Of a stretch of DNA of 32,000 nucleotides, positions 8,029 to 23,731 are shown piece after piece. The notes under the pieces are model-generated. The model saw only the letters and a list, made by a program, of their open reading frames with translations, ran no database searches and was not told the origin of the DNA. Source of the stretch: Candidatus Electronema aureum (GTDB lineage Bacteria; Desulfobacterota; Desulfobulbia; Desulfobulbales; Desulfobulbaceae); assembly GCA_004284765.1 (NCBI GenBank), contig NQJD01000002.1, forward strand, positions 187,202 through 219,201. The letters are read 5' to 3'. How positions within the stretch are numbered: the first letter of the stretch is position 1; each line of letters begins with the position of its first letter. Both the position numbers and the translations under genes were made by a program.

Positions 8029-8934
8029 ATGGGATGGACGATGAGAAGATTTTTTTCTGCTGTTTTTGCGCTGGCCTTTGTCGTCAGCTGTTTATCTTTA
8101 GCATGGGCAGGCGAAAAGGAGGATGAGCTGCTCAAGGCGATGGAGGCAATTGTGCAGCAGTATAAGGCAGGCGAGGGCAATCAGCAGCAATCAAAGGACG
8201 ATACGCCTCCCGCCGTTGAGCAGCAGAAGAGCCAAGCATTGCAACAAACACCTGTTGAGGCGGCTTCTTCTTGGTTACAACCTCCAGCTGCCACTACGCC
8301 TCCAGTTCCAACAGAGCAGTTACAGAGTGTTGAGGAAGAAGCAGCGATTCCAGCAGAAATCGCCGATATCTTCCAACTGTCGCCATCTCCTGCGCAGGTG
8401 GCTAATAATGATGACATTATCACCACCATTGAAGAAGCGGTGCGCCAGTATCGGGCTAACGATTTTGCCGGAGCGATTTCCAATCTCGACTATGCCACTC
8501 AGCTGATCCGCCAGAAAAAAAGCGAACGAATGAAGGCTCTGCTGCCTGAACCTTTGCTCGGCTGGCTGGCCAAGCCCGCTTTGGCAAAATCTTTAGGTAC
8601 AGCGGTCTTTGGCGGTGGATCGACAGTCAGTCGCGATTACTTTATCGGTGGTGGTGCCGTCGTTTCTGTCGAAATCATCTCCGATTCCCCGGTACTCCAA
8701 TCGATCATCATGATGCTCAATAATCCGCTTTTTGCTGGAGCTTCGGGCGGGAACATTCAAACCATCAAACAACAGCGGGCCATGCTCAAATACAATGAGC
8801 AAGATCACAGCGGCGAAATTAATATTGTGGTTGCTGGGCGTTTCATTGTCACCGTTAAAGGCCGAGCTGTAGATCAAATTGTGCTGTTCCGCTATGCTGA
8901 AGCCGTTGATTTTGAAGCATTGGCGAAAAATTAG
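8029..8934 (+). CDS. secreted hypothetical protein with Q/P-rich linker
   Basis: Signal-peptide-like N terminus (MRRFFSAVFALAFVVSCLSLAWA; the start could be ATG 8041). Low-complexity Q/P/A segment, then a Gly-rich C-terminal domain. Followed by an intrinsic terminator. Confidence 0.6.
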   Translation: MGWTMRRFFSAVFALAFVVSCLSLAWAGEKEDELLKAMEAIVQQYKAGEGNQQQSKDDTPPAVEQQKSQALQQTPVEAASSWLQPPAATTPPVPTEQLQSVEEEAAIPAEIADIFQLSPSPAQVANNDDIITTIEEAVRQYRANDFAGAISNLDYATQLIRQKKSERMKALLPEPLLGWLAKPALAKSLGTAVFGGGSTVSRDYFIGGGAVVSVEIISDSPVLQSIIMMLNNPLFAGASGGNIQTIKQQRAMLKYNEQDHSGEINIVVAGRFIVTVKGRAVDQIVLFRYAEAVDFEALAKN

Positions 8935-8989
8935 ACTGTCTAAAATTCTCCCAAGAAGTGCCTTTAAGGGTTTTTCCTGTGTGAGATGA

Positions 8990-9040
8990 CCTCAGCCACC
9001 CGAACTGAACTGGCCTTCTTCCGGGTGGCTGAGGTTTTTT
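8990..9040 (+). terminator. rho-independent terminator
   Basis: 12-bp perfect stem CCTCAGCCACCC (8990-9001) / GGGTGGCTGAGG (9023-9034), followed by TTTTTT (9035-9040). Confidence 0.7.
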
Positions 9041-9058
9041 CCTTTTTACGGCAAAAAT

Positions 9059-9244
9059 ATGTCTGAACAAAAAATTGTCCGGCCCGTGACTGACGAGGCG
9101 GTGCTGAAAGCGGCCAAAGAAATCATGGTCAAATTCATCGAAATCGGCAAGGTGACTCCGGCGAATTTCGAGGAGCATTACGAGCGGATTTTCAACACCA
9201 TCAAGAAGTCGGCGCAAGAGTTGAACGATGACAGCCCAGCTTGA
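9059..9244 (+). CDS. small hypothetical protein (61 aa)
   Basis: ORF with host-like codon composition directly after the terminator; its 3' end overlaps the mpl start by 17 nt. No clear Shine-Dalgarno sequence and no recognisable motif. Confidence 0.4.
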   Translation: MSEQKIVRPVTDEAVLKAAKEIMVKFIEIGKVTPANFEEHYERIFNTIKKSAQELNDDSPA

Positions 9245-10709
9245 TCCGCAGCTCAATTGTGCGCCGGAGAACATCCATCACATTCATCTGATGGGCATCT
9301 GCGGCACGGCGATGGCCGCCTTGGCCGGAATGCTCAAGGAAAGCGGCTACGTGGTCAGCGGCTCAGATCAGAACGTGTATCCACCGATGTCGGATTTCCT
9401 CGCGCAGGCTGGCATTGCGGTCATGCAGGGCTACAAGCCGGAGAATATGGAGCCGCGCCCGGATTTGGTCATCGTCGGCAACGTCATCCGGGCCATTTAC
9501 CCGGAAGCCGAGCGGCTGGCCGAGCTGCGCATTCCTTACCTGTCCATGCCCCAAGCACTTGGGCATTTTTTCCTGCGCAGCGCAATCAAGCCGTTAGTGG
9601 TGGCGGGAACGCACGGCAAAACAACGACTTCCTCGCTCTTGGCCACGGTTCTGCACCGCGCCGACCGCTCGCCCGGCTTTTTCATCGGCGGGATTGTCGA
9701 GGCATTTGGCAGCAATTACCGCATCGGCACCGGCGACTGTTTCGTGATCGAAGGCGACGAATACGACACCGCCTTTTTCAACAAAGTTTCCAAATTTCTG
9801 CACTACCGGCCTTTCTGCGCCATTGTCACGTCAATTGAGTTCGATCACGCCGACATTTTCGCCGATCTGGAGCAGATCAAGGCTTCGTTCCGCCAGTTTG
9901 TCCGTTTGATTCCGAATGAAGGCGCGTTGGTCGCCTGCATGGATGATCCAGTTGTGGTGGAAATTGCCGCGCTTTGTCCCGGCCAAATAATCAGCTACGG
10001 CACAGGTGCAAACTGCCGCTGGCAGCTCAGGGATTTTGCCGCAAATGGGCTTGGCTCGACCTTTGCCGCTTGGAAAGACGGCAGCCTGTTCGGCGCATTC
10101 AGCCTGCCCATGCCGGGCAAGCACAACGCGCTCAACGCCTTGGCCGTGATTGCCTTGCTGGAGCATCTTGGCCTCAGCCGCGAGGAAATACGGCGCGGGC
10201 TGGCTTCTTTTGAGGGCGTGAAGCGACGGCAGCAGGTGCGCGGCGAGGTCAACGGCATCACGGTGATTGACGATTTTGCTCATCATCCCACCGCAGTGCG
10301 CGAGACGATCAGCGCGTTGCGGCTGGCTTGGCCGGAACGCCGCCTGCTGGTCGTCTTTGAGCCGCGCACCAACACCAGCCGCCGGGCGGTGTTTCAGCGG
10401 GATTACGAAACCGCCTTTGCGGGCGCAGACATGGTGGTGGTGCGTGAGATTCTGCCGCTTGACCACGCCGCGCCGGGCGACAGCTTTTCCTCGCGGCAGC
10501 TGACTGCGGCTCTGAACGGCCAAGGCATTCCGGCGGAGTATTTCCCGAACACCGATGCCATTCTTGCTTTTCTACTCAAGCAGGCTCGGCCCGGCGATGT
10601 GATCGCCATTCTTTCCAACGGCGGATTTGACAACATTCATGCGCGGCTGCTGGAAGGGCTGCGCCTTGTCGGCCTGACCGCAAAGTCTGGCGGCAACTCT
10701 GCGCCGTAA
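9228..10709 (+). CDS. mpl: UDP-N-acetylmuramate:L-alanyl-gamma-D-glutamyl-meso-diaminopimelate ligase
   Basis: Mur-ligase architecture: IHLMGICGTAMAALAGML N-terminal fold, P-loop GTHGKTTTSSLLA, and a C-terminal ...IAILSNGGFDNIHARLL typical of Mpl. Confidence 0.9.
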   Translation: MTAQLDPQLNCAPENIHHIHLMGICGTAMAALAGMLKESGYVVSGSDQNVYPPMSDFLAQAGIAVMQGYKPENMEPRPDLVIVGNVIRAIYPEAERLAELRIPYLSMPQALGHFFLRSAIKPLVVAGTHGKTTTSSLLATVLHRADRSPGFFIGGIVEAFGSNYRIGTGDCFVIEGDEYDTAFFNKVSKFLHYRPFCAIVTSIEFDHADIFADLEQIKASFRQFVRLIPNEGALVACMDDPVVVEIAALCPGQIISYGTGANCRWQLRDFAANGLGSTFAAWKDGSLFGAFSLPMPGKHNALNALAVIALLEHLGLSREEIRRGLASFEGVKRRQQVRGEVNGITVIDDFAHHPTAVRETISALRLAWPERRLLVVFEPRTNTSRRAVFQRDYETAFAGADMVVVREILPLDHAAPGDSFSSRQLTAALNGQGIPAEYFPNTDAILAFLLKQARPGDVIAILSNGGFDNIHARLLEGLRLVGLTAKSGGNSAP

Positions 10710-11224: not shown

Positions 11225-11362
11225 GCGGCAGCGTTTTTCTGGCACCGCTGCCATTTTTGCTTTTCTGCTGGCGCAGGCGAAATCATCGCCATTTTTTCAA
11301 ACGGCGATTTTGACAACATTCATGCAAGGTTACTGGATAAAATAACCATTCAAGAAAGATGA
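11225..11362 (+). pseudogene. diverged, frameshifted second copy of the mpl 3' end
   Basis: Nucleotide similarity to 10530-10653. It encodes IFAFLLAQA in one frame, then after a roughly 10-nt gap relative to mpl, GEIIAIFSNGDFDNIHARLLD in another (mpl has ILAFLLKQARPGDVIAILSNGGFDNIHARLLE). Its TGA (11360-11362) overlaps the ATG of the next gene. Confidence 0.7.
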
Positions 11363-13098
11363 ATATTTTTATATTTTCAATTTTTGTTTCTCTCGTTCTC
11401 TATTTAACACTTACGATCTCTTTTGCTGGGTACGGAAAAGCTATATATCTGATAATTAACGACAGATATAAAAAAGAAGTGAATCACCAAATATCCTTCT
11501 TGGTATGGACTGGATTTTGCTGTTTTATTTTCATTATGAGCATTATTCATCTATTCTTTTCTCTTGATTTATATGTAGTTGTCCCGACTCTTACTTTTGG
11601 AATCATCCTTTCAATAATATTTTTTATCAAAAACTTTAATTATTATTTACAAATTGTCTTGTCAGTACCAACTTGGTTGTTGGTTGTGATGTTTTTCGCA
11701 CTCTCCTTGGTCTCCACGTGGCTTGCATTACGCGCCATGTTACCTCCAACAAATTACGATTCTGGACTTTATCATTTCAACTCAATAAAATGGTTAAATT
11801 CTTTCCCAATAACATATGGGATTGGAAATTTACATGGAAGATTATCGTTTAATCAATCTTTTTTTGCATACGCAGCATCTCTTAATTTTTATCCATTATT
11901 TAATCACGGACGTTCTATAGCAAACAGCTTTCTTATTTTGCTATCTTTTGCAACCTTAGTTGAATTTAGTTTTCGATTAAGAAGTAAAGATAAATTTAAA
12001 AATTTAAATTTTGTTTTATCTATTTTTACAATCCCAGTACTTGCATACTGGTCACTCACATCAGACGGAATGCAGTCTCCTTCTCCTGATCTAACATCTA
12101 ATCTTATTCAAATAATAATTTTTTTCTATTTTGTAGAGTTTCTAAATACAGAAAAAAATTCAACAAAATCAATATACTTATTGTCTCTTCTGACTGCAAC
12201 AGCAATAACGATAAAATTAAGCAATTTATTATTTTGCATGTCAATTATTTTTTTATTATTTTTTATATCTTCTTTGCGTAAAAACTTTTCTGTTAAAGGG
12301 TATTTACTATCTACATTTATTATATTTGCAATATTGGCAGTCTGGTGTATTCGCGGATTTATTATGTCAGGAGCGCCTCTTTATCCTTCAACGATTGGCT
12401 ATATCAACGCAGAATGGTCTGTCCCTGTGGACGAAATAAATGAAATGGAAAAATGGGTTTACAGCTGGGCGCGACAGCCAAAAATGCACTGGAGTGTTGT
12501 GCTGGGAAACTGGAACTGGTTTACACCTTGGATTAATGTAATAACAACAAAAAGAAATATAGAAGTAGTTTTTCCATCTTTTGTTTTTTTATCGTTAACT
12601 ATAATTAATATAGTATTATATTTCAGATCGAAAAATATCTTTAGACTATATTTTCTATCTAAATTAACAATAATTATACCTCCAGCTATTGGGTTGTTGT
12701 TTTGGTTTTTTACTGCCCCTGATCCAAGATTTGCGCAGGGACTTTTTTTCTTACTGCCAATTTCTTCAGCTCTTTTTATGCTTTACTTGACAAGAGAACT
12801 GCTAAAACGTACCACTTATATAATAACTATATGCATTCTTTTTTTATTTTGTAGCTTTAACTTAATAAGGTTTATGGTAAACAACATGTCGACATTTAGA
12901 CAAATTTCAATGATTGGCTGGCAAAATATCAAAAATGTTGAGATAGAAAGAAAAATTACAAAACATGGTGTTGTTATATTTAAGCCCTTACACGGAGATC
13001 AGTGCTGGGACTCTCCTATTCCTTGTACTCCATACTTTAACGAAGAACTACGCATGAGAAACCACAAGGTAGTGTCATCAGGGTTTTCAATAAAATAA
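11359..13098 (+). CDS. AT-rich polytopic membrane protein, possibly a GT-C / O-antigen-polymerase-like glycan-processing enzyme (function uncertain)
   Basis: 579-aa uninterrupted ORF in sequence of about 30% GC (sampled lines) with more than 10 hydrophobic helices. A loop motif PPTNYDSGLYHFNSIKW...GNLHGRLSFNQS resembles polysaccharide polymerase/glycosyltransferase-type membrane proteins. Confidence 0.75.
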   Translation: MNIFIFSIFVSLVLYLTLTISFAGYGKAIYLIINDRYKKEVNHQISFLVWTGFCCFIFIMSIIHLFFSLDLYVVVPTLTFGIILSIIFFIKNFNYYLQIVLSVPTWLLVVMFFALSLVSTWLALRAMLPPTNYDSGLYHFNSIKWLNSFPITYGIGNLHGRLSFNQSFFAYAASLNFYPLFNHGRSIANSFLILLSFATLVEFSFRLRSKDKFKNLNFVLSIFTIPVLAYWSLTSDGMQSPSPDLTSNLIQIIIFFYFVEFLNTEKNSTKSIYLLSLLTATAITIKLSNLLFCMSIIFLLFFISSLRKNFSVKGYLLSTFIIFAILAVWCIRGFIMSGAPLYPSTIGYINAEWSVPVDEINEMEKWVYSWARQPKMHWSVVLGNWNWFTPWINVITTKRNIEVVFPSFVFLSLTIINIVLYFRSKNIFRLYFLSKLTIIIPPAIGLLFWFFTAPDPRFAQGLFFLLPISSALFMLYLTRELLKRTTYIITICILFLFCSFNLIRFMVNNMSTFRQISMIGWQNIKNVEIERKITKHGVVIFKPLHGDQCWDSPIPCTPYFNEELRMRNHKVVSSGFSIK

Positions 13099-13116
13099 CA
13101 AGATATTTTTTTATAA

Positions 13117-13221
13117 CAAGTAAGCAATATTTTGACTGTAAATTTTAACGGCATCAATCACCTTGCATTAGTGACTGGCGACATGGAGGCCACCATCCAC
13201 TTTTGGCGCGATCTACTATGA
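13117..13221 (+). pseudogene. N-terminal stub of a VOC/glyoxalase-family gene
   Basis: Short frame reads ...NFNGINHLALVTGDMEATIHFWRDLL then TGA. INHLALVT..D.E.T..FW.D.LG is the typical first beta-alpha unit of VOC proteins; the rest of the gene is absent. Confidence 0.5.
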
Positions 13222-13603
13222 ATGCGCCTGATAAAATATGTGTTTCTAACCAGTCGCTATTCAAGACAAGAAAAAATGTAAGGGACGTGGCACCGAGTCG
13301 TAGCTTTGGCGTGTCGGTTGGTTGCCCCTTGCGTCGGCCATTTTTTATTTGCAATTTTAGCGGCATTATGTCATAATTATGTCGTGCTTTTAAGCCGTTG
13401 TTTGTCAGTGTCAAAGACAAGCTGTCTCATCGTTTTTTCTGATATCTTTGACCCTTTCTGGGTCTGAATGTTCTTCCACAGTTATGGCAGATGGGCGATA
13501 AAGCCACCCGCTCTGCTTTCATTAAGTTCTTATGGCCTGCGTTCAGGGGGCTATCCGCCAACCTTTCCTGATTTTGTCGGCCTGAAACATTACGGAGAAG
13601 AAA

Positions 13604-14212
13604 ATGTCTGACTATCAACCGAAAATCTTGGGGTTTCTCTGCAACTGGTGCTGCTACACCGCCGCTGACTCCGCTGGCGTGGGCCGCTATCAGTATCCGC
13701 CCAACCTGCGGGTAATCCGCATGATGTGCACTGGCAGGCTCGATCCGTCGTTCCCGCTGGAAGGGCTGGCGAATGGGGCTGACGCAGTCTTTGTCGGCGG
13801 CTGTCATCCGGGCGAGTGCCACTATATCGACGGCAACTACCACGCTTTGGTCTCAGCCGCTTTGGTGCATGAGACCTTGGCGCGTCTGGGCATCAGCAAA
13901 GACCGCTTCCTGATTGATTGGGCCTCTGCTGCCGAAGGGCCGAATTTTGTCAAGATCATCACCAAGTTTACCCAACGGGCCGCCGAGCTGGGACCGCTGG
14001 GCAAGGCTGAAGGGTTGAACGAAGCCGAGCTGCGCAAGAAGCTGGTCGAGGCGGCAGAGGTCTCCCGCAATGCCAAGGTACGCACCGGCTTGATCAGTGC
14101 GAGCAAAGAGATGATGAAGAGCGGCGACTATTCCCGGCCCGCCATCGCTGCCTTGGTGGCGGCCAAGTGCGACAAAAACCTGACTGAACTCCTTGGAGGA
14201 CGACCTGTATGA
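13604..14212 (+). CDS. MvhD/FlpD-like hydrogenase iron-sulfur subunit family protein
   Basis: RBS GGAGAAG lies upstream. Motifs KILGFLCNWCCYTAAD, MCTGRLDP and FVGGCHPGECHY. The stop overlaps the next start (ATGA at 14209-14212). Confidence 0.85.
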   Translation: MSDYQPKILGFLCNWCCYTAADSAGVGRYQYPPNLRVIRMMCTGRLDPSFPLEGLANGADAVFVGGCHPGECHYIDGNYHALVSAALVHETLARLGISKDRFLIDWASAAEGPNFVKIITKFTQRAAELGPLGKAEGLNEAELRKKLVEAAEVSRNAKVRTGLISASKEMMKSGDYSRPAIAALVAAKCDKNLTELLGGRPV

Positions 14213-17200
14213 GCAAGACCGCAACCCTGACCATCAACGGCCAGCAGTTCAGCCTTGCCCCTGACCAGACCATTCTGGCAGCGGCAGATCAGGCGGGCAT
14301 CCGCATTCCTCGCCTCTGTCATCTGCCGGGCCACCGCGATGCCGACCAGCCCTGTCTGCTCTGCCTCGTCGAGGTGAACGGCAAGAGGGCGCGGGCCTGT
14401 CAGACCAAGATCGCTGACGGCATGGTGATCGAGACGGAGACCGCCGAGCTGATCGCCCACCGCAAGGAACGGCTGACTCAGCTCGCCGCTGTTCATTACG
14501 GCGACTGCAAGGCCCCCTGCAACCTGACTTGTCCCGGTTCGATCAACGTGCAGGGCTACATCGGCCTGATCGCCCAAGGCCAGCACAGCGCGGCCCTTCG
14601 CCTGATCAAGGAAGTGAACCCGCTGCCAGGCATCGTCTGCCGCGTTTGCCCGGCTTTCTGCGAGAGCCGCTGCCGTCGTTCGCTCTTGGATGACGCGATT
14701 GCCATCAACAATCTGAAGCGTTTCGCCTCAGACTACGCGGTGCAGCATCCGCTGCCGCAAGAGCCAGTTGCCCCAGCTACAGGCCGCAAGGCTGCTGTTA
14801 TCGGTGGCGGCCCAGCAGGTTTGAGCGCAGCGTGGTTCCTGCGCAAGCAGGGCCACAGTGTCACCATCTTTGAAGCAGCTGCGCAGCTCGGCGGCCTGCC
14901 GCGCACGGCCATGCCCGCCTACAAGATGCCCAAAGATGCGCTGGACCGGGAGATTGCCACTGTCCTCGCTTTAGGCGTGGAAGCGAAGACCGGCACAGCT
15001 TGGGGCAAGGATTTCTCGCTCGCTGATCTTCAGCAGCAGGGCTACGAGGCTATTTTCATCGCCGCTGGTTTGTCTGGCCGGAAGAAGCTGACTGTGCCCG
15101 GCTCTGAGCTGGCGCAGGATGGCATGGACTTCCTTGCTCAGGTCAATGCAGGAGCAGCGAAGCAGCTTTCCGGCAAGATACTGATCATCGGCGGCAGCAA
15201 GGCAGCAATTGAGTCGGCCCGCTGCGCTGTTCGCATGGGCGCAAGCGAAGTGACGGTAGTCTTTGACCGCCCGACTGAGGAAATGAGTGCCTACGAGAAG
15301 GACGTGTCCATGGCCATGCGGGAGAAAGTGCGCTTCCTGCCCATGACCGCGCCGCTCTCCATCCGGCAGGAGCAAGACGGTTTCGTGGTTGAGCTGACCA
15401 AAATGGTCTTCTTGGAAGCAGATCAGCGCGGCCAGCGGCAGACTGTGCCTGCGGACGGCTCGCTCCTGCGCTGGGAAGGCGCGGCAGTGTTGAGCTGCTT
15501 GGGCCAAGAAGGCGACGATGCCTTCCGCAGCTTCGGCGAGCTGGAAGGCAAGCTGGCGGTCAATCCCAACAAGACGATCAAAGTCAGCCCCTCCACCTTG
15601 CATACCAATCTGCCTGGCATCTACGCGGGCGGTGAGATTGCCAGCGGTGCCAAGGCGGTGATTCAGGCGGTGAACGCGGGCCGCAAGGCTGCTGAAGCTA
15701 TACACCGGCAGTTCGGCGGGACAGAGACCGAGCTGGCTGACGGCACCTTCAACTTCAGCAAGGGTAAGAAGTTTGATGACGTTGACCTGCGCAACTACAG
15801 CGGCATGACTGTCCAGCCGCGTCTGCGCCTGCCCGTGCGTCCGGTCGCTGACCGCAGCCGCGACTTCCGCGAGAGCGAGCTGGGCTACACCGAGGAAACA
15901 GCTGTGCGCGAGGCGCAACGCTGCCTGTCCTGCGGCTGCACCGGCCTGAGCAAGTGTGAGCTGCGCCCGCTCTGCCAGGAGCACAAAGTGCCGCTCTCTG
16001 CTGCCCCCAACAAGCAGCAGGCCGCGCCGGACAGCTCGCATCTCTTCATCACTGTTGATGTGAACCGCTGCACCGCCTGCCAACGCTGCGAGCGGGTCTG
16101 CGAGTTCGATGCCTTCGCGTTTTCCTGCGAGCGCGGCAAGGACGGCGGCATTGCCAGTATCAGCCTGAAGATCAAGGAAAACTGCGTCTCCTGCGGGGCC
16201 TGCGTGGATGCCTGCCCGACCGGCGCACTGACCAAGAAAGAGCTGGCTGTGCCGCTCCTGCCCGGCGAGGCGGAAAGCACCCGCAGCGTCTGCACCTACT
16301 GCGGCACCGGATGCAGCATTGACATTCAGGCCAAGCACGGTGCTATTCTGGAGGTCAAATCCTTTGCCGACGCGCCGCCTAATCAAGGTGACCTCTGCGT
16401 CAAAGGCCGCTTTGGCTGGGACTTCTACCGGCACAAAGAACGTCTGACCGTGCCGCTGATCCGCGAGAGCCTTGATCAACCTTTCCGCAAAGCCACATGG
16501 CCGGAGGCTCTGGCCTTTGCCGCTGCGGGCTTCAAGCGTATTCAAGAACAGCAAGGCCCGGCAGCGCTGGGCGTGCTCTCCTCCTCGCGCTGCGAGAACG
16601 AGGTGAACTACCTCGCTCAGAAGTTCTGCCGCACCGTCTTCCACAGCAACTCGGTGGACAACTGCGCCCGCGTCTGCCATGCGCCGTCAGTGAGCGGCCT
16701 GCGCATTGCTCTTGGCAGCGGCGCGGCGACCAACTCGCTCGCCGACATCGAAGGCGCGGAGGTGCTGCTGATCAGCGGATCCAACACCACTGAGGCGCAT
16801 CCGGTGGCGGGCATGAAGGTCAAACGCGCTCTTGGCAAGAAGGGAGCCAAGCTGATCGTCATTGATCCGCGCAAGACCGAGCTGGCAGCGCGGGCGGACA
16901 TCCATCTCCAGCTCATTCCCGGCACCAACGTTCTTCTGCTCAACTCCCTGCTCAGCGCCATCTTCGACGAAGGCTTGGAGGACAAGGACTTCATCGCCAA
17001 TCGGACGGAGAACAGCGAGGCAGTGCGCCAGCATCTCGCCGCGTATTCGCCTGAAGTGATGGAAGCGCAGAGCGGGGTTCCCGCCGCGCTGGTGCGGCAG
17101 GCGGCCCGGCTCTATTGCAGCACCAAAAAGGGCATGATCCTCTACGGTCTCGGCATGACCGAGCACCGCAACGGCACTCAAGGCGTAATGGGGCTGGCGA

Positions 17201-18309
17201 ACATCGCACTGGCTTCAGGCAATGTGGGCAGGCCGAGCGCGGGCATCTGTCCGTTGCGTGGCCAGAACAACGTCCAAGGCTCTTGCGACATGGGCGCGCT
17301 GCCCTATGTCTATTCCGGCTATCAGGACGTGGCGGATGATGCCGCCCGCAGCCGGATGGAGCAGCTCTGGCAGTGCGGCCTGTCCGACGTGCCTGGCATG
17401 ACTGAGCCGGAGATGTACGAGGCGGCCCGCGCCGGTCAGTTCAAGGGCCTGTACTGCATCGGTTATGACCCGGTGCACACACAGGGCGATGTCAACAACG
17501 TGCAGGCCGCCTTCCGGCAAATGGACATGGTGGTGGTGCAGGACATCTTCCTGACCAAGACAGCGCAGATGGCGCACGTGGTGCTGCCCGCCTCCTGCTT
17601 CTACGAGAAGGATGGCACCTTCACCAACGCCGAGCGGCGCATCCGGCGCATCCGCAAGGCCGTGGAGCCGCTGAGTGAGTCGCGGCCTGACTGGAAGATC
17701 GTCTGCGATTTGGCGCAGGCGATGGGGCACAGCATGGATTATGCGGATGCCGCAGCGGTGATGGACGAGATTGCCGCCTGCTCGCCAATGCTCGGCGGGG
17801 TGAAGTACGACCGCCTCGAAGGCGACGGCCTGATCTGGCCCTGCCCGACCGCTGATCATCCCGGCACGCCCATCCTGCACAAGGAGAGCTTCACACGGGG
17901 CAAGGGCTACTTCTCCGTGCTTAAGAACGTGGAGACGCTGGAGAAGCCGGATGCTGAATACCCGCTCATCCTCGTCACCGGCAGGCGGCGTGAGCACTAC
18001 AACAACGGCTCCATGACCCGCCGCTGCTCCGGCCTGCTGGCCCTTGTGCCGGAAGAGCTGGTGGAAATCCACCCGGATGACGCGGCCTGGCTCGGCATCG
18101 TGGATGGCCAGCGGGTGTCAGTCAGTTCGCGGCGCGGCGCAATTGAGCTGACCGCTTGGGTGACTGAGCGCAGCCGTCCCGGCGCGATCTTCATGGCCTT
18201 CCACCACGAAGAGCCATTGACCAACACCCTCACCAGTCCGGGCGTGGATGAGATCGCTCTTACGCCTGAGTACAAAGCCTGCGCGGTGCGGGTGGCTCCG
18301 GCGGCATAA
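14209..18309 (+). CDS. fusion protein: [2Fe-2S] domain, GltD/NfnB-like FAD/NAD(P) oxidoreductase, 2x[4Fe-4S] ferredoxin, and molybdopterin formate dehydrogenase alpha (Cys type)
   Basis: 1366 aa. Cys37/49/52/64; CKAPCNLTCP and CRVCPAFCESRC; VIGGGPAGL (about nt 14800) and IIGGSKAA folds; CTACQRCERVC and CVSCGACVDACP; MopB cluster CTYCGTGC...C730; active-site ARVCHAPS (Cys823, TGC 16675-16677); C-terminal dinucleotide-binding domain. Confidence 0.9.
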   Translation: MSKTATLTINGQQFSLAPDQTILAAADQAGIRIPRLCHLPGHRDADQPCLLCLVEVNGKRARACQTKIADGMVIETETAELIAHRKERLTQLAAVHYGDCKAPCNLTCPGSINVQGYIGLIAQGQHSAALRLIKEVNPLPGIVCRVCPAFCESRCRRSLLDDAIAINNLKRFASDYAVQHPLPQEPVAPATGRKAAVIGGGPAGLSAAWFLRKQGHSVTIFEAAAQLGGLPRTAMPAYKMPKDALDREIATVLALGVEAKTGTAWGKDFSLADLQQQGYEAIFIAAGLSGRKKLTVPGSELAQDGMDFLAQVNAGAAKQLSGKILIIGGSKAAIESARCAVRMGASEVTVVFDRPTEEMSAYEKDVSMAMREKVRFLPMTAPLSIRQEQDGFVVELTKMVFLEADQRGQRQTVPADGSLLRWEGAAVLSCLGQEGDDAFRSFGELEGKLAVNPNKTIKVSPSTLHTNLPGIYAGGEIASGAKAVIQAVNAGRKAAEAIHRQFGGTETELADGTFNFSKGKKFDDVDLRNYSGMTVQPRLRLPVRPVADRSRDFRESELGYTEETAVREAQRCLSCGCTGLSKCELRPLCQEHKVPLSAAPNKQQAAPDSSHLFITVDVNRCTACQRCERVCEFDAFAFSCERGKDGGIASISLKIKENCVSCGACVDACPTGALTKKELAVPLLPGEAESTRSVCTYCGTGCSIDIQAKHGAILEVKSFADAPPNQGDLCVKGRFGWDFYRHKERLTVPLIRESLDQPFRKATWPEALAFAAAGFKRIQEQQGPAALGVLSSSRCENEVNYLAQKFCRTVFHSNSVDNCARVCHAPSVSGLRIALGSGAATNSLADIEGAEVLLISGSNTTEAHPVAGMKVKRALGKKGAKLIVIDPRKTELAARADIHLQLIPGTNVLLLNSLLSAIFDEGLEDKDFIANRTENSEAVRQHLAAYSPEVMEAQSGVPAALVRQAARLYCSTKKGMILYGLGMTEHRNGTQGVMGLANIALASGNVGRPSAGICPLRGQNNVQGSCDMGALPYVYSGYQDVADDAARSRMEQLWQCGLSDVPGMTEPEMYEAARAGQFKGLYCIGYDPVHTQGDVNNVQAAFRQMDMVVVQDIFLTKTAQMAHVVLPASCFYEKDGTFTNAERRIRRIRKAVEPLSESRPDWKIVCDLAQAMGHSMDYADAAAVMDEIAACSPMLGGVKYDRLEGDGLIWPCPTADHPGTPILHKESFTRGKGYFSVLKNVETLEKPDAEYPLILVTGRRREHYNNGSMTRRCSGLLALVPEELVEIHPDDAAWLGIVDGQRVSVSSRRGAIELTAWVTERSRPGAIFMAFHHEEPLTNTLTSPGVDEIALTPEYKACAVRVAPAA

Positions 18310-19964: not shown

Positions 19965-20318
19965 ATGCTTGAAGTAACTGATTCAGCAGTTAAAAACGTT
20001 AAAGAGTATCTGAGCCAGCACAGCATCGAGTCTGCTGTCCGGGTCAGCATGATTTCTGGCGGCTGCTCTGGCCCCAGCCTGAGCTTGTCCATCGACGAAG
20101 CAAAAGACAGCGACCTGACCGTAGAGAAAGACGGGGTTAGCTTTGTTATGGACAAGGGCCTGTCAGCTACCTGCGGCGCAGTGAAGGTTGATTTCATTGA
20201 ATCATCCGGTGGCTGTGGCTGCTCCGGTGGTGGTTTCACTATCACCTGCGAGAACCCCTTGCCCGGCGCACGGAGCGGCGGCTGTGGCGGTTCTTGCTCC
20301 TCTGGTTCCTGCTGTTAA
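19965..20318 (+). CDS. IscA/HesB-family Fe-S assembly-like protein with Cys/Gly-rich C-terminal tail
   Basis: ATG 19965 with RBS AGGAG (19954-19958); the listed GTG at 19923 is unlikely. Motifs MLEVTDSAVKNVKEYL, GGCSG and GGCGCSGGGF, then an extra tail TCENPLPGARSGGCGGSCSSGSCC. Confidence 0.75.
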   Translation: MLEVTDSAVKNVKEYLSQHSIESAVRVSMISGGCSGPSLSLSIDEAKDSDLTVEKDGVSFVMDKGLSATCGAVKVDFIESSGGCGCSGGGFTITCENPLPGARSGGCGGSCSSGSCC

Positions 20319-20386: not shown

Positions 20387-22006
20387 TCACTTCACCTTAT
20401 ACTTCTTCGGCTCAATCCCATAGTTGTGAATTTTGTAGTTGATGATCCGCAGGCTGGTGTCTAAGCGTTCCGCCGCCTTGGTCTGGTTGCCATTGCATTG
20501 CTTGAGTGCTTCGATGATCAGGTCGCGCTCGAAATGCTCCACAGCGGAAGCTAAGGACAGCGGACTGCCGTTGCCGCTGCTGCCCACGCTCTCTGCGCTT
20601 TGCAAAGTAGGTGGCAGATGCACCGAGCTGACCGTACTGGAATCGCAGATCAGCACCGCCCGTTCCATACAGTTCTGCAATTCGCGCACATTGCCTGGCC
20701 AGTGGTATTTGATCAGCAGGTCAATCGCCGAGGTGGAGATGCGTTCGATCTTCTTACCGTTCTCTCGGCTGTACTGTTCGAGGAAATAGTCAGCGAGCAA
20801 GAGAATATCGGTGCGTCGCTCGCGCAAGGGCGGCAGATAAAGGGGAAAGACGTTGAGGCGATAATAGAGGTCTTCGCGGAACTTACCCTCGCGTACCGCT
20901 GCTTCCAAATCGCGATTGGTGGCCGCGACAAGGCGGATGTCCGCCTTGATCAGCTCTGCACCGCCGAGTCGCTGAAAGGTGCGTTCCTGAATCACATTTA
21001 ACAGCTTCACCTGCACCGCCGTGCTGATCTCACCGATTTCATCGAGGAAGAGCGTGCCGCCTTGGGCTTGCTCGAAGCGGCCTGCCTTGCGTTCTACTGC
21101 GCCGGTGAAGGCTCCTTTCTCATGACCAAACAGCTCGCTTTCGAGCAAAGTTTCCGGCAGTGCCGAACAGTTGACGATCACAAAAGGCTTCTTCGCCCGG
21201 CCTGAGTTCTGATGTAAGGCTTTGGCCACCATGGATTTGCCCGTGCCAGATTCACCGCGCAGCAGCACCGTGGCGTTGGAGTTCGCCACCCGATGCACCA
21301 TCGCAAAGACCTCTTGCATCCTTGAGGAATTGCCGATAATCTCCTCAATCCGGTTCTTGGCAGATAGCTCACGTCGGAGCTGCTGATTCTCGTGGTGCAA
21401 TGCCTCCTTTTCTCGGCTGACGCTTTGAATGCGATGCACAGTCTGAGCAATCAGAGCACTAACTATGGTGAGAAAGCGGAGATCGCGCTCTGATTGCAGC
21501 CCGAATTCTTTTTCATAACAGCGGTCAATCGACAGCGCACCGATGGCGAGGCTTTCCGTCTGCATCCGCTGGCTATCAGCAGAGCTTTCTACTGCTGTTT
21601 TGATCGGCACACAGATGAACGAGCTTTTCCGCTTCTGCTCCTCAGTGCGCATCCCGGTACGGTTGAGGAAAAGCGGCTCCTCAGCGATCTGCGGCACAAT
21701 GACTGGCTCACCGGTAGCAACGACTCGCCCAGTGATGCCCTCACCTAATTTGTAGCGACCTTTTTTCCGAGCAGCAGGTGTGCTGCCACAAGCCACCTCA
21801 ATTTCTAACTCCCGCGTCACCGGATTAACAATAGTGACAGTGCCGTTCTGCATTTTTTTTAGGGCAGCGAGAATGCTGACCACCTTATCTAAGGCCTCCT
21901 GAAGATCAGTGGCAGCAGCAAGATTTCTGGTAATTTCATAGAGACAGGAGAGGTCTTGCAAGGCAAGTTCCTGGTCAGCCGAGGAAGTTCCGGCATCAGC
22001 ATTCAT
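20387..22006 (-). CDS. sigma-54-dependent transcriptional activator with N-terminal GAF domain (NifA/FhlA-like architecture)
   Basis: AAA+ Walker A GESGTGKS, sigma-54 contact loop GAFTGA, Walker B LFLDEIGE, and a C-terminal Fis-type [23 protein letters not shown]. The N-terminal roughly 190 aa are GAF-like. Confidence 0.9.
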
Positions 22007-22816: not shown

Positions 22817-23731
22817 TTATATCTTTTGAATCTTCCTTGGCCAGATACACTTCTTGGTTTTACCCAAATCAGGGCCGAACATCGGGAAGCCAGCTACTTC
22901 CACGGAAATGGCATCAAAGGCGCAGGCTTCAGTCATGCACTTCATACAGTTGACGCATTCGCAGCTGTTCGGATTTTCGTTAAACTTGATATCAACCGGA
23001 CATACTTTGTGACAGACTCCGCACCCGGTGCAGTTATCCTTATTCAGTTGGAGCCTGATCAGCTGAAAGCGGCTAAACAGGGCATAAAAGGCTCCCAATG
23101 GACAAGCAGTGCGGCAGAACGGTCGAGAGGCAAAGACTGACCACGTTGTAAAGCCAAAGGCGATGATCAGCTTATTGACAAAAAGCCAGCCAACCGCGCC
23201 GCGTAGATTAGGATCAAGAAGCAACATGGGAATACCGGCCTGAAACGTACCTGCGGGGCAGACGTATTTACAGAACCAAGGCTGGCCCATGCCAGAATTA
23301 CTAACAAAGATCAACGGAAAAACGATGACCAGTAAAAGCAGGACAGCGTATTTTAGCCAGCGGAGCTGATCAGGAATCGAGAGCTTGCGCGAAGGTATCT
23401 TGTGCAGCAGTTCTTGAAAAAAGCCAAAAGGACAGGCCCAGCCGCAGATGAAGCGGCCAAAGACTGCTCCTAACATGCCGATAGAGCCGAGGACAAAGGC
23501 ACCAAAATAATGTTGCCCGCTCTGGATGGAAAAACGGATATTGGCTAAAAGTTGCTGAAGCGTACCAATTGGGCAGAACGCGGTTGATGAAGGGCAGGAA
23601 TAGCAGTTAAGGCCGGGAGAACAAACCACCTTCATCGGTCCCTTGTAGATAGTGCGGGTCCAAGGAAAGGCCCAGTAGCCGTTCACTAAGAAAAACCAAA
23701 CTCCCTGTACCCACTTTCGCGCACGTTCCAT
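22817..23731 (-). CDS. membrane-bound polyferredoxin, NapH/YccM-like 4Fe-4S binding protein
   Basis: Several TM helices. Repeated Cx3CP motifs (CGWACPFG, CKYVCPAG, CRTACPLG) plus CYSCPSSTAFCP. The C-terminal part carries 2x[4Fe-4S] motifs CTGCGVCHKVCP and CVNCMKCMTEAC. Confidence 0.85.
   Translation of the reverse strand: MERARKWVQGVWFFLVNGYWAFPWTRTIYKGPMKVVCSPGLNCYSCPSSTAFCPIGTLQQLLANIRFSIQSGQHYFGAFVLGSIGMLGAVFGRFICGWACPFGFFQELLHKIPSRKLSIPDQLRWLKYAVLLLLVIVFPLIFVSNSGMGQPWFCKYVCPAGTFQAGIPMLLLDPNLRGAVGWLFVNKLIIAFGFTTWSVFASRPFCRTACPLGAFYALFSRFQLIRLQLNKDNCTGCGVCHKVCPVDIKFNENPNSCECVNCMKCMTEACAFDAISVEVAGFPMFGPDLGKTKKCIWPRKIQKI

Follow-up and report, generated by a model that had tools for sequence, protein, structure and literature searches.

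A predicted single-chain formate dehydrogenase with an altered nucleotide site and its probable extended MvhD partner in the cable bacterium Candidatus Electronema aureum

Introduction

The two genes considered here, mvhD and fdhBA, lie next to one another in a stretch of 32,000 nucleotides (hereafter the window, meaning that whole stretch) from the freshwater cable bacterium Candidatus Electronema aureum, and they resemble in part several systems that have been described before. StnC, which has the same type of fusion as the fdhBA product, holds one [2Fe-2S] cluster, six [4Fe-4S] clusters, flavin adenine dinucleotide (FAD) and NADPH (PMC10482914). Its electron path is linear (FAD-C7-C6-C5-C4-C3 to StnB), its FAD is no longer able to bifurcate, and the two clusters leading into its FdhF-like domain are regarded as a 'non-functional evolutionary remnant' (PMC10482914); no formate oxidation was found for StnC (PMC7483475). 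In NfnB, Arg201, which corresponds to Arg239 of StnC, is hydrogen-bonded to the FAD at its N5, a contact held to be crucial to bifurcation (PMC10482914). The purified NADPH-dependent formate dehydrogenase (FDH) of Moorella thermoacetica is composed of SfrB2 as the beta subunit and SfrA2/FdhF3 as the alpha subunit (PMC13040438). In Desulfurivibrio dismutans, a 'fused FdhAB' is located beside the genes of the Wood-Ljungdahl pathway (WLP) and is reported to be co-expressed with them and with hdrL and mvhD (PMC12142623). The set of fused FdhAB, HdrL and MvhD has already been described and hypothesised upon, for that organism in 2025 (PMC12142623), and loci of the hdrL/hdrA-mvhD-fdh kind have been known since 2009 (PMC2702500).

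The WLP is the route of CO2 fixation in cable bacteria and sulfur disproportionators, with electrons from sulfide oxidation, the potential of which is far too positive for the reduction of CO2 to formate; FdhBA is a candidate for this most reducing first step of CO2 fixation. On balance, we lean towards a composite model in which FdhBA would be a cytoplasmic CO2 reductase whose iron-sulfur (Fe-S) chain is wired by MvhD to HdrL, with any bifurcation at HdrL and with an altered nucleotide pocket in the GltD-type module. The evidence for each part is given below, together with the alternatives on which it bears.

Results

Domain architecture and catalytic module of FdhBA

Pfam profile mapping of the 1366-residue protein returned Fer2_4 (residues 4-78), with which the chain opens directly, Fer4_20 (99-180), Pyr_redox_2 (194-491) and Fer4_7 (620-673), followed in the C-terminal half by Molybdop_Fe4S4 (690-739), Molybdopterin (PF00384, 745-1170) and Molydop_binding (PF01568, 1253-1359). 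This is exactly the four-module order that had been proposed in a preliminary description of this DNA, made from its letters, and the motifs quoted there were all present where it had placed them. The features of the two genes are as follows.

13604 to 14212, plus strand: mvhD, 202 residues, [2Fe-2S] adaptor protein (list of open reading frames (ORFs), Pfam FlpD)
14000 to 14209, plus strand: C-terminal extension of MvhD, about 70 residues (133-202), beyond the FlpD core and lacking in archaeal MvhD
14209 to 18309, plus strand: fdhBA, 1366 residues, predicted single-chain formate dehydrogenase/CO2 reductase (ORF list, Pfam, NCBIfam, homologues)
14218 to 14442, plus strand: N-terminal [2Fe-2S] domain (Fer2_4, residues 4-78; Cys37/49/52/64), by Pfam, cysteines invariant
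14503 to 14748, plus strand: GltD-type domain for two [4Fe-4S] clusters (Fer4_20, residues 99-180; C100/104/108, C147/151/155, K170), by Pfam, residues invariant
14788 to 15681, plus strand: FAD/NAD(P)H module with two dinucleotide folds (Pyr_redox_2, residues 194-491), by Pfam, FAD motif VIGGGPAGL (197-205) intact
14923 to 14925, plus strand: Lys239, in the place of the Arg that lies at FAD N5 (R239 in StnC, R201 in NfnB), by alignment to 8oh5_C
15184 to 15270, plus strand: non-canonical NAD(P)H site, IIGGSKAAIE (residues 326-335) and VVFDR (350-354), by alignment to solved relatives
15922 to 16227, plus strand: CLSCGCx5C segment (residues 572-583) and ferredoxin domain for two [4Fe-4S] clusters (620-673), by Pfam Fer4_7, cysteines invariant
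16276 to 18285, plus strand: FDH catalytic module (FS0 [4Fe-4S] 690-739, Molybdopterin 745-1170, cap 1253-1359), by TIGR01591
16675 to 16680, plus strand: active-site Cys823-His824, with Arg1017 at 17257 to 17259 (plus strand) and Lys732

The N-terminal half, at residues 3-632, is spanned by PRK12814, a model for SfrB/GltD-like proteins, and its FAD/NAD(P)H module matches NfnB (4ylf_B) and NfnL (5jca_L) with E values of about 1e-65. Over residues 694-1362, the NCBIfam model TIGR01591 (Fdh-alpha), the cutoff of which is 666.25, scored 793.8 bits. The nearest solved chains to the C-terminal half are alpha subunits of NAD-linked and other FDHs of the cytoplasm, 9wxb_B and 6tg9_A (E about 1e-204), with FdhF (1aa6) at 6e-158. 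In an alignment of 12 homologues with 38-74% identity, the cysteine ligands of the Fe-S clusters, those of FS0 (C695/698/702/730) included, were invariant, as were Lys170, Lys732, Cys823-His824 and Arg1017. By profile score and catalytic residues, the C-terminal half is thus a bona fide Cys-type formate dehydrogenase, with the domains predicted to bind a Mo/W-bis-pterin cofactor.

A TGA occupies the exact codon of Cys823 in three further loci (L012, L013 and L014; CARV*HAPSV, at position 12473-12475 of L012). Because the TGA falls precisely on this codon, the fused enzyme is, as read from these genes, one that occurs in both selenocysteine (Sec) and Cys forms. The Sec versions (P0105-P0118) are miscalled as proteins of about 824 residues that end just ahead of the catalytic residue. 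In Dissulfuribacter thermophilus, selB directly follows hdrL-mvhD-fdhBA (L092, 14247-16232), though the active site of its FdhBA carries Cys.

Three solved chains align from the N-terminus of FdhBA onwards, namely StnC (8oh5_C; residues 5-1032, E 1.4e-164), 9bov_A (9-1030) and 9n5u_A (2-722); all of them begin between residues 2 and 9 and extend to at least 722, and to about 1030 for StnC and 9bov_A. StnC carries an FDH annotation but is without activity on formate (PMC7483475), and this likeness could be taken to mean that FdhBA is a StnC-like scaffold with a dead molybdopterin remnant, serving as a transhydrogenase or another redox subunit. We regard this as very improbable. The TIGR01591 score lies above its cutoff, the Mo and cap domains are of full length whereas StnC-like proteins measure only 1150-1270 residues, the four residues Cys823, His824, Arg1017 and Lys732 are invariant, and Sec replaces the catalytic Cys in relatives. 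Nor are StnAB/NuoEF-like genes adjacent; among the genes next to fdhBA in the window and in the loci of relatives, no NuoE/F-like gene was found except for one 78-residue 2Fe-2S_thioredx ORF in L093. With a StnC-like count of cluster motifs and in addition an intact FDH domain, FdhBA would by analogy form a single wire that links one FAD to the pterin by way of seven clusters, of which six are [4Fe-4S] and one is [2Fe-2S].

The nucleotide site of the GltD-type module

Residue numbering of FdhBA coincides with that of StnC in this region, and the alignment to 8oh5_C is in register. The second Rossmann motif reads GGSKAAIE in FdhBA, as compared with G(G/A)GNTAMD in 8oh5_C, 9bov_A, 9n5u_A, 4ylf_B and 5vj7_A; position 330 is Ser and not the Gly of GxGxxA, and after beta-2 VVFDR stands where the solved relatives have VYRR. 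Of the two dinucleotide folds that had been proposed, VIGGGPAGL is hence intact, and IIGGSKAA is real but non-canonical, with Ser330 and with FDR in place of YRR. The same division applies to the cofactor ligands, in that the FAD motif and the Fe-S cysteines are intact but the NAD(P)H signature is altered.

Rossmann folds in general use basic residues past beta-2 to hold the 2'-phosphate of NADPH, and an acidic residue there favours NADH. The NADPH signature (GxGxxA, then Arg-Arg past beta-2) is absent from FdhBA, and 79 of 121 family members lack the Arg pair. Those that keep YRR (42/121) have Arg239 and Gly330 in every case (42/42) and the full GGGN in 39 of 42. Among the 79 others, position 353 is occupied by Pro (37), Asp (20), Gln (10) or Glu (5), Lys239 is found in 64, and position 330 is Ser in 36 and Thr in 4. 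A neighbour-joining tree constructed from the FDH half alone clustered the sequences by motif state and displayed a graded series, from YRR through YPR/YER to HDR/FDR, with the cable bacteria at its end. Relative to the Mo core, conservation of the NADPH subdomain was 0.75 in the set without the Arg pair as against 0.97 in the set with it, the linker and Fe-S domains being relatively more conserved in the former, in a comparison whose two sets are defined by the motif itself. Because the NADPH signature has been lost (Asp353, Ser330, Lys239), the GltD nucleotide pocket has probably shifted its specificity, plausibly towards NADH, or has lost importance as the main electron entry.

This bears on the model put forward in the preliminary description, a self-contained, two-protein bifurcating or confurcating FDH in which the FAD of the GltD module serves as an Nfn-like site and no HdrA is involved. 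Homology of the GltD module to NfnB, cited above, speaks for such a site. However, the Arg at N5 of NfnB corresponds to Lys239 in FdhBA, and in StnC, the nearest solved fusion chain, the FAD is non-bifurcating and feeds one linear path (PMC10482914). A partner of the NfnA type (PyrK-like, with FAD and [2Fe-2S]) was found neither among 20 large ORFs of the window nor among the called genes of relatives' loci. Given Lys239, the degraded NADPH signature and the non-bifurcating nature of the homologous FAD in StnC, an Nfn-like bifurcating flavin in FdhBA is unlikely, and the proposal that it takes the place of HdrA is not supported by the comparison.

MvhD and its C-terminal extension

The MvhD protein matches Pfam FlpD (PF02662) at residues 8-130 (E 6.7e-47, full profile 1-123), and its first 138 residues align with M. 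wolfeii MvhD (5odc_D, E 5e-45), including the motifs CNWC, C-TGR and GGCH-G-CH. Matches to solved chains ranged from E 1e-24 to 1e-45, and each of the six chains matched belongs to an entry in which HdrA is present as well. Pfam, NCBIfam and the alignments thus agree with the earlier proposal of a fusion to a GltD/NfnB-type flavin module coupled to a canonical MvhD.

Beyond the FlpD core, the extension listed above was present at 10/10 fused loci with a remodelled nucleotide site (the window, L001/L002, L007, L008, L011, L003, L092, L094, L012 and L095), compared with 0/2 of those with canonical YRR; no MvhD at all was found at the flanked canonical loci, L093 and L015. In L012 and L095 a gene of the extended type heads the WLP operon, and the second FlpD of the same operons is without the extension, as are the MvhD-like proteins at loci of ordinary FDHs (L035, L051 and L060). 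This co-occurrence, ten of ten against none of two in a small and non-random sample, suggests that the extended MvhD is a specific partner of this FDH clade.

Some loci of Dehalococcoidia and Pirellulales (L042, 5456-14109; L051, 4405-10205; L035, 963-11509) encode separate GltD-like proteins of about 1030 residues. L042 also carries a 730-residue SfrB-like protein, an FdsA-type FDH of about 905 residues follows directly in L042 and L051, and in L035 and L060 short MvhD-like genes are found with a 1500-residue HdrL-like protein nearby.

Genomic context and the position of hdrL

Among relatives with 50-94% identity, the gene order hdrL-mvhD-fdhBA was found in five (L001/L002, L007, L011, L092 and L094). 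It is present in Ca. Electronema sp. V4, the nearest of them (identity of 94% at the protein level; hdrL of 1014 residues), on a JGI contig (89% identity), in Ca. Electrothrix scaldis (73%; one small gene lies in between) and in Dissulfuribacter thermophilus (L092, 58%), and is kept at a 50%-identical homologue. In Desulfurivibrio (L003) the order is fdhBA, an hdrD-like gene, hdrL and mvhD. An HdrA-type gene accompanies mvhD in L001, L003, L007, L011, L092 and L094, but not in the window or in L008, and in Ca. E. halotolerans mvhD-fdhBA has no adjoining hdrL.

The DNA of the window is homologous to that of the V4 operon over 13589-18306 only, and the match opens with the final base of the stop codon of hdrL. 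In Ca. E. aureum an hdrL gene (P0267, 1018 residues) is located on OW818638.1 (2,938,053 bp), which we read as the same chromosome. This relocated hdrL (L009, 10001-13057, plus strand) lies divergently from an HdrD-like gene (Fer4 and CCG domains; 8210-9484, minus strand), and a DDE transposase gene (14142-15035, minus strand) is found about 1 kb downstream of it. The HdrD-like protein is of the same type as that separating fdhBA and hdrL in Desulfurivibrio. HdrL itself matches HdrA (5odc_A, E 5e-193) and adds a second Pyr_redox_2 domain (603-875) and a domain for two [4Fe-4S] clusters.

A remnant of hdrL upstream of mvhD was considered and ruled out, as no DNA homology precedes 13589 and a DUF8201 gene fills the space. 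The latter encodes a predicted membrane protein of 579 residues (11359-13098, plus strand), has 31% GC with a third-position GC (GC3) of 0.27, and stands at the place of hdrL in relatives; it looks like foreign DNA that was inserted at, or marks, the rearrangement breakpoint. Downstream of fdhBA, one more gene belongs to this comparison.

19965 to 20318, plus strand: IscA/HesB-like protein, tail rich in Cys and Gly, encoded 1.6 kb downstream of fdhBA (Pfam Fe-S_biosyn)

The tail of this protein reads GGCGCSGGG…GGCGGSCSSGSCC. The protein is 45% identical to the product of the gene after hdrL-mvhD in Desulfurivibrio (L003, 19946-20293) and may be a conserved accessory of the FDH module, perhaps for Fe-S delivery. 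Since the IscA-like gene is kept as in Desulfurivibrio, the window locus seems to retain part of an old neighbourhood from which hdrL has moved away.

The preliminary description was right that the window carries no hdrA, nuoEF-like, fdhD or hydrogenase gene, which holds for the 20 large ORFs scanned. It had also suggested that the pair could be self-contained. In favour of that model, mvhD and fdhBA stay paired where hdrL is gone from the neighbourhood (the window and L008), and the extended MvhD is found with the fused enzyme also where no hdrL adjoins. Against it, hdrL is a conserved operon partner and is retained in the genome. Together with the evidence on the flavin, this makes the self-contained model improbable in our view. 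Because hdrL is part of relatives' operons, the homology breaks off at the hdrL stop and hdrL is retained on the chromosome, the pair is probably not self-sufficient. Its designation as a two-gene unit thus holds insofar as the extended MvhD tracks the fused FDH and the genes are coupled by ATGA, but the set of relatives also includes hdrL.

Further along in the window are a sigma-54 activator with a GAF domain (20387-22006, minus strand) and a NapH-like Fer4_5 membrane Fe-S protein (22817-23731, minus strand). No link of either gene to the FDH genes is evident, given that no sigma-54 motif was found upstream of mvhD.

Association with Wood-Ljungdahl genes

In L095 and L012, fdhBA is the last gene of an operon with the order FlpD-Fer4-FlpD-MetV-MetF-CdhD-ACS-CdhE-AcsE-fdhBA, and in L093 it adjoins genes for MTHFR, AcsE, CdhD/E, ACS, CODH and FolD. 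Because fdhBA of relatives ends or adjoins WLP operons in three lineages, the prediction that FdhBA serves the WLP's methyl branch as its cytoplasmic CO2 reductase is well supported by gene context. The role of cytoplasmic formate dehydrogenase/CO2 reductase suggested earlier is supported by this linkage, by the TIGR01591 score and by the retained catalytic Cys-His-Arg.

Such a role would also fit a simple, non-bifurcating NAD(P)H-dependent FDH, in effect a fused Moorella FdhAB/SfrAB, in which NAD(P)H would reduce the FAD and the Fe-S chain would carry the electrons to the pterin, and for which MvhD would be an accessory or an optional second port. The domain set is that of the SfrB-like beta and FdhA alpha subunits of the Moorella enzyme (PMC13040438), with PRK12814 covering residues 3-632, and the FAD of StnC passes NADPH electrons on linearly (PMC10482914). 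Fused homologues with canonical GGGNTA…YRR occur alone or beside WLP genes without MvhD or HdrL (L093 and L015), and hdrL is not adjacent in the window. On the other hand, the NADPH signature of every solved relative is missing from the window protein and throughout its clade, the ATGA coupling to mvhD is kept in four cable-bacterium loci, and hdrL is kept in the operon down to 50% identity. In addition, NADH alone would be unable to drive CO2 reduction at cellular potentials (an argument made in PMC13040438). We therefore give the simple enzyme a minor share of the probability, though a larger one than the self-contained pair.

Authenticity, expression signals and base composition

Both ORFs were found as had been claimed, joined by a 4-nucleotide ATGA overlap (14209-14212) of the mvhD TGA stop and the fdhBA start, which is the overlap preserved in four cable-bacterium loci. 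The FdhBA protein exactly matches TAA76093.1/CAK8713613.1 of Ca. Electronema aureum, annotated as 'formate dehydrogenase major subunit', and MvhD exactly matches a deposited protein of this organism annotated as 'coenzyme F420-reducing hydrogenase, delta subunit'. An identical 1366-residue protein is encoded on four contigs, which comprise assemblies of three independent SRA runs and one contig of more than 1 Mb, and the neighbours of the ORF were the same in three of these places (longest record 2,938,053 bp). The full-length architecture is common to more than 100 clusters at 90% identity. At 50% clustering, about 15 representatives are true fused FDHs, about half of which stop at an in-frame TGA, and the many further matches of 1150-1270 residues are StnC-like and have a molybdopterin domain that is reduced in length. 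The identical protein on four contigs from independent assemblies and the >100 full-length homologues rule out a misassembled fusion.

Upstream of mvhD, GGAG stands as a ribosome-binding site before the start codon (ATG, 13604), and a consensus scan for sigma-70-like promoters returned 4 sites against 1.2 expected, with one weak candidate of note.

13348 to 13377, plus strand: sigma-70-like promoter candidate, TTGCAA-17-CATAAT with TG, 5' of mvhD (consensus scan, weak)

A search with the sigma-54 promoter pattern gave 4 matches against 4.07 expected, none of them within 13100-13600, and a sigma-54 promoter 5' of mvhD was rejected on these grounds. The scan for intrinsic terminators found none after fdhBA; its sole match was internal, and the count was below that expected from shuffled sequence.

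The fdhBA gene has a GC content of 63% in a window of 53%, and the GC3 of mvhD, fdhBA and hdrL is 0.72-0.79 as compared with 0.58-0.73 in the other window genes measured. Orthologues in relatives are likewise 4-10 points above the GC of their own loci. As the orthologues are also raised and hdrL shares the bias, a gene-specific composition or codon bias is just as likely a cause of the high GC as horizontal transfer. Antisense ORFs of up to 569 residues lie inside 14209-18309 (for example 14971-16680, minus strand); given the 63% GC of the gene, these are most likely shadow ORFs.

Discussion

A composite model for the unit

In the composite model towards which we lean, mvhD-fdhBA would encode the core of a cytoplasmic, Cys-type Mo/W-bis-pterin FDH, a beta-alpha fusion of the SfrAB/Moorella-FdhAB type that works as the CO2 reductase of the WLP methyl branch in Ca. 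Electronema aureum. The [2Fe-2S] cluster of MvhD would bridge the Fe-S chain of FdhBA to HdrL, possibly at the surface matching that where StnB docks on StnC. HdrL, an HdrA-like flavoprotein of about 1018 residues with a second FAD/NAD(P)H domain, has its gene elsewhere in the genome following a rearrangement, and any bifurcation or confurcation would take place at its HdrA-type FAD and not at the GltD flavin, the pocket of which would have shifted away from NADPH. As has been proposed for D. dismutans (PMC12142623), the high-potential arm may consist of the HdrD-like protein together with a disulfide of the DsrC type.

Several points weigh against this model. The contact between MvhD and FdhBA is one that we infer, and the argument on specificity uses motif positions alone, where Ser330 and Asp353 could still permit NAD(P)H binding. 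With hdrL non-adjacent in the window and in Ca. E. halotolerans, the pair might act without HdrL, and in L012 and L095, where the extended MvhD accompanies MetVF-type genes, no HdrL was found within 10 kb. The synteny sample is small and non-random, at 12 loci, because the contig survey, made with patterns for the FDH catalytic core, was swamped by more than 600 generic FdsA-type FDHs and recovered few fused loci (L012-L015). We found no purified or biochemically characterised fused member in the literature, in which genomic descriptions of the same architecture do exist.

Building on the composite model, we tentatively suggest a further-reaching possibility, which we consider appreciably less probable. 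Here the fused FdhBA would form, together with HdrL and the extended MvhD, an uncharacterised flavin-based bifurcating CO2 reductase of sulfur-oxidising and sulfur-disproportionating Desulfobacterota. The MvhD/HdrL port would have been gained as the ancestral NADPH site was dismantled, by way of YRR to YPR/YER to HDR/FDR, Arg239 to Lys and Gly330 to Ser, leaving a flavin that works on NADH or as a relay only. The remodelled site and its tie to the extended MvhD appear to be new, as we found no discussion of them in the literature, and the stepwise change of the motif constitutes a concrete prediction on cofactor specificity. Practical value is modest: the reading as a self-contained, Nfn-like enzyme is corrected, and the pair becomes one piece of a three-component set known from genomes.

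Comparison with known systems

FdhBA shares with StnC/Bfu-type proteins the domain order, the number of clusters, Lys170 and the fusion of Fer2, GltD and NuoG/FdhF-like parts. Its Cys37/49/52/64 domain corresponds to cluster C4 of StnC and K170 to the Lys ligand of C7 (PMC10482914), and the CLSCGC and ferredoxin clusters are homologous to C5, C3 and C2 by an assignment that we infer (PMC10482914). StnC differs in its inactive and shortened FdhF-like domain, its partner StnAB (NuoEF/HydBC-like), and its canonical NADPH motif and Arg239, whereas FdhBA has intact FDH and cap domains, an mvhD partner gene and a remodelled nucleotide site. If the composite model is right, the 'dead' FDH domain of Stn-type transhydrogenases would find its explanation in FdhBA as an evolutionary intermediate.

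With the Moorella FDH and Geobacter SfrAB, FdhBA has in common a GltD/SfrB-like flavin Fe-S subunit and an FdhA-type molybdopterin subunit, a kinship that follows from the papers' descriptions and the PRK12814 match and not from sequence comparison. The Moorella enzyme has two subunits and Sec in its active site, is described as NADPH-dependent and has neither MvhD nor HdrL as a partner, and FdhBA, by contrast, lacks GxGxxA…RR.

The closest likeness in gene content is to the fused FdhAB of D. dismutans (RS08735/08730/08725; PMC12142623), with its NAD(P)H/FAD, ferredoxin and molybdopterin domains, its HdrL and MvhD neighbours and the same proposed role as CO2 reductase of the WLP (PMC12142623). 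A homologue from Desulfurivibrio sp. (P0035) is 62% identical to FdhBA of the window. There the three genes stand together beside WLP genes, whereas in the window hdrL is separated from mvhD-fdhBA; the published account assumes NAD(P)H dependence, is silent on altered nucleotide motifs and purified no enzyme (PMC12142623). Desulfobacterium autotrophicum offers an earlier parallel (PMC2702500, 2009), with hdrL/hdrA-mvhD-fdhB-fdhA, a cytoplasmic Fdh and a proposed electron cycling, but with FdhB and FdhA as separate genes (PMC2702500).

Read from its sequence, FdhBA is not a plain member of any characterised look-alike family, because it fails one defining feature of each: the NADPH motif of the GltD/Moorella type, the N5 Arg and NfnA of the Nfn type, and the dead FDH domain with StnAB of the Stn type. 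In methanogens, MvhD accompanies FDH and HdrA in the same solved entries of the Fdh-MvhD-HdrABC system (7bkb, 9sfi/9t1s), which differs in its F420-type FdhAB and in HdrBC subunits that reduce CoM-S-S-CoB; the FdhBA set has its own GltD flavin module and a bacterial HdrL with a duplicated FAD domain. If HdrL does act through MvhD, bacteria would have in this set an equivalent of the Fdh-MvhD-Hdr machinery of methanogens that is built upon another FDH scaffold.

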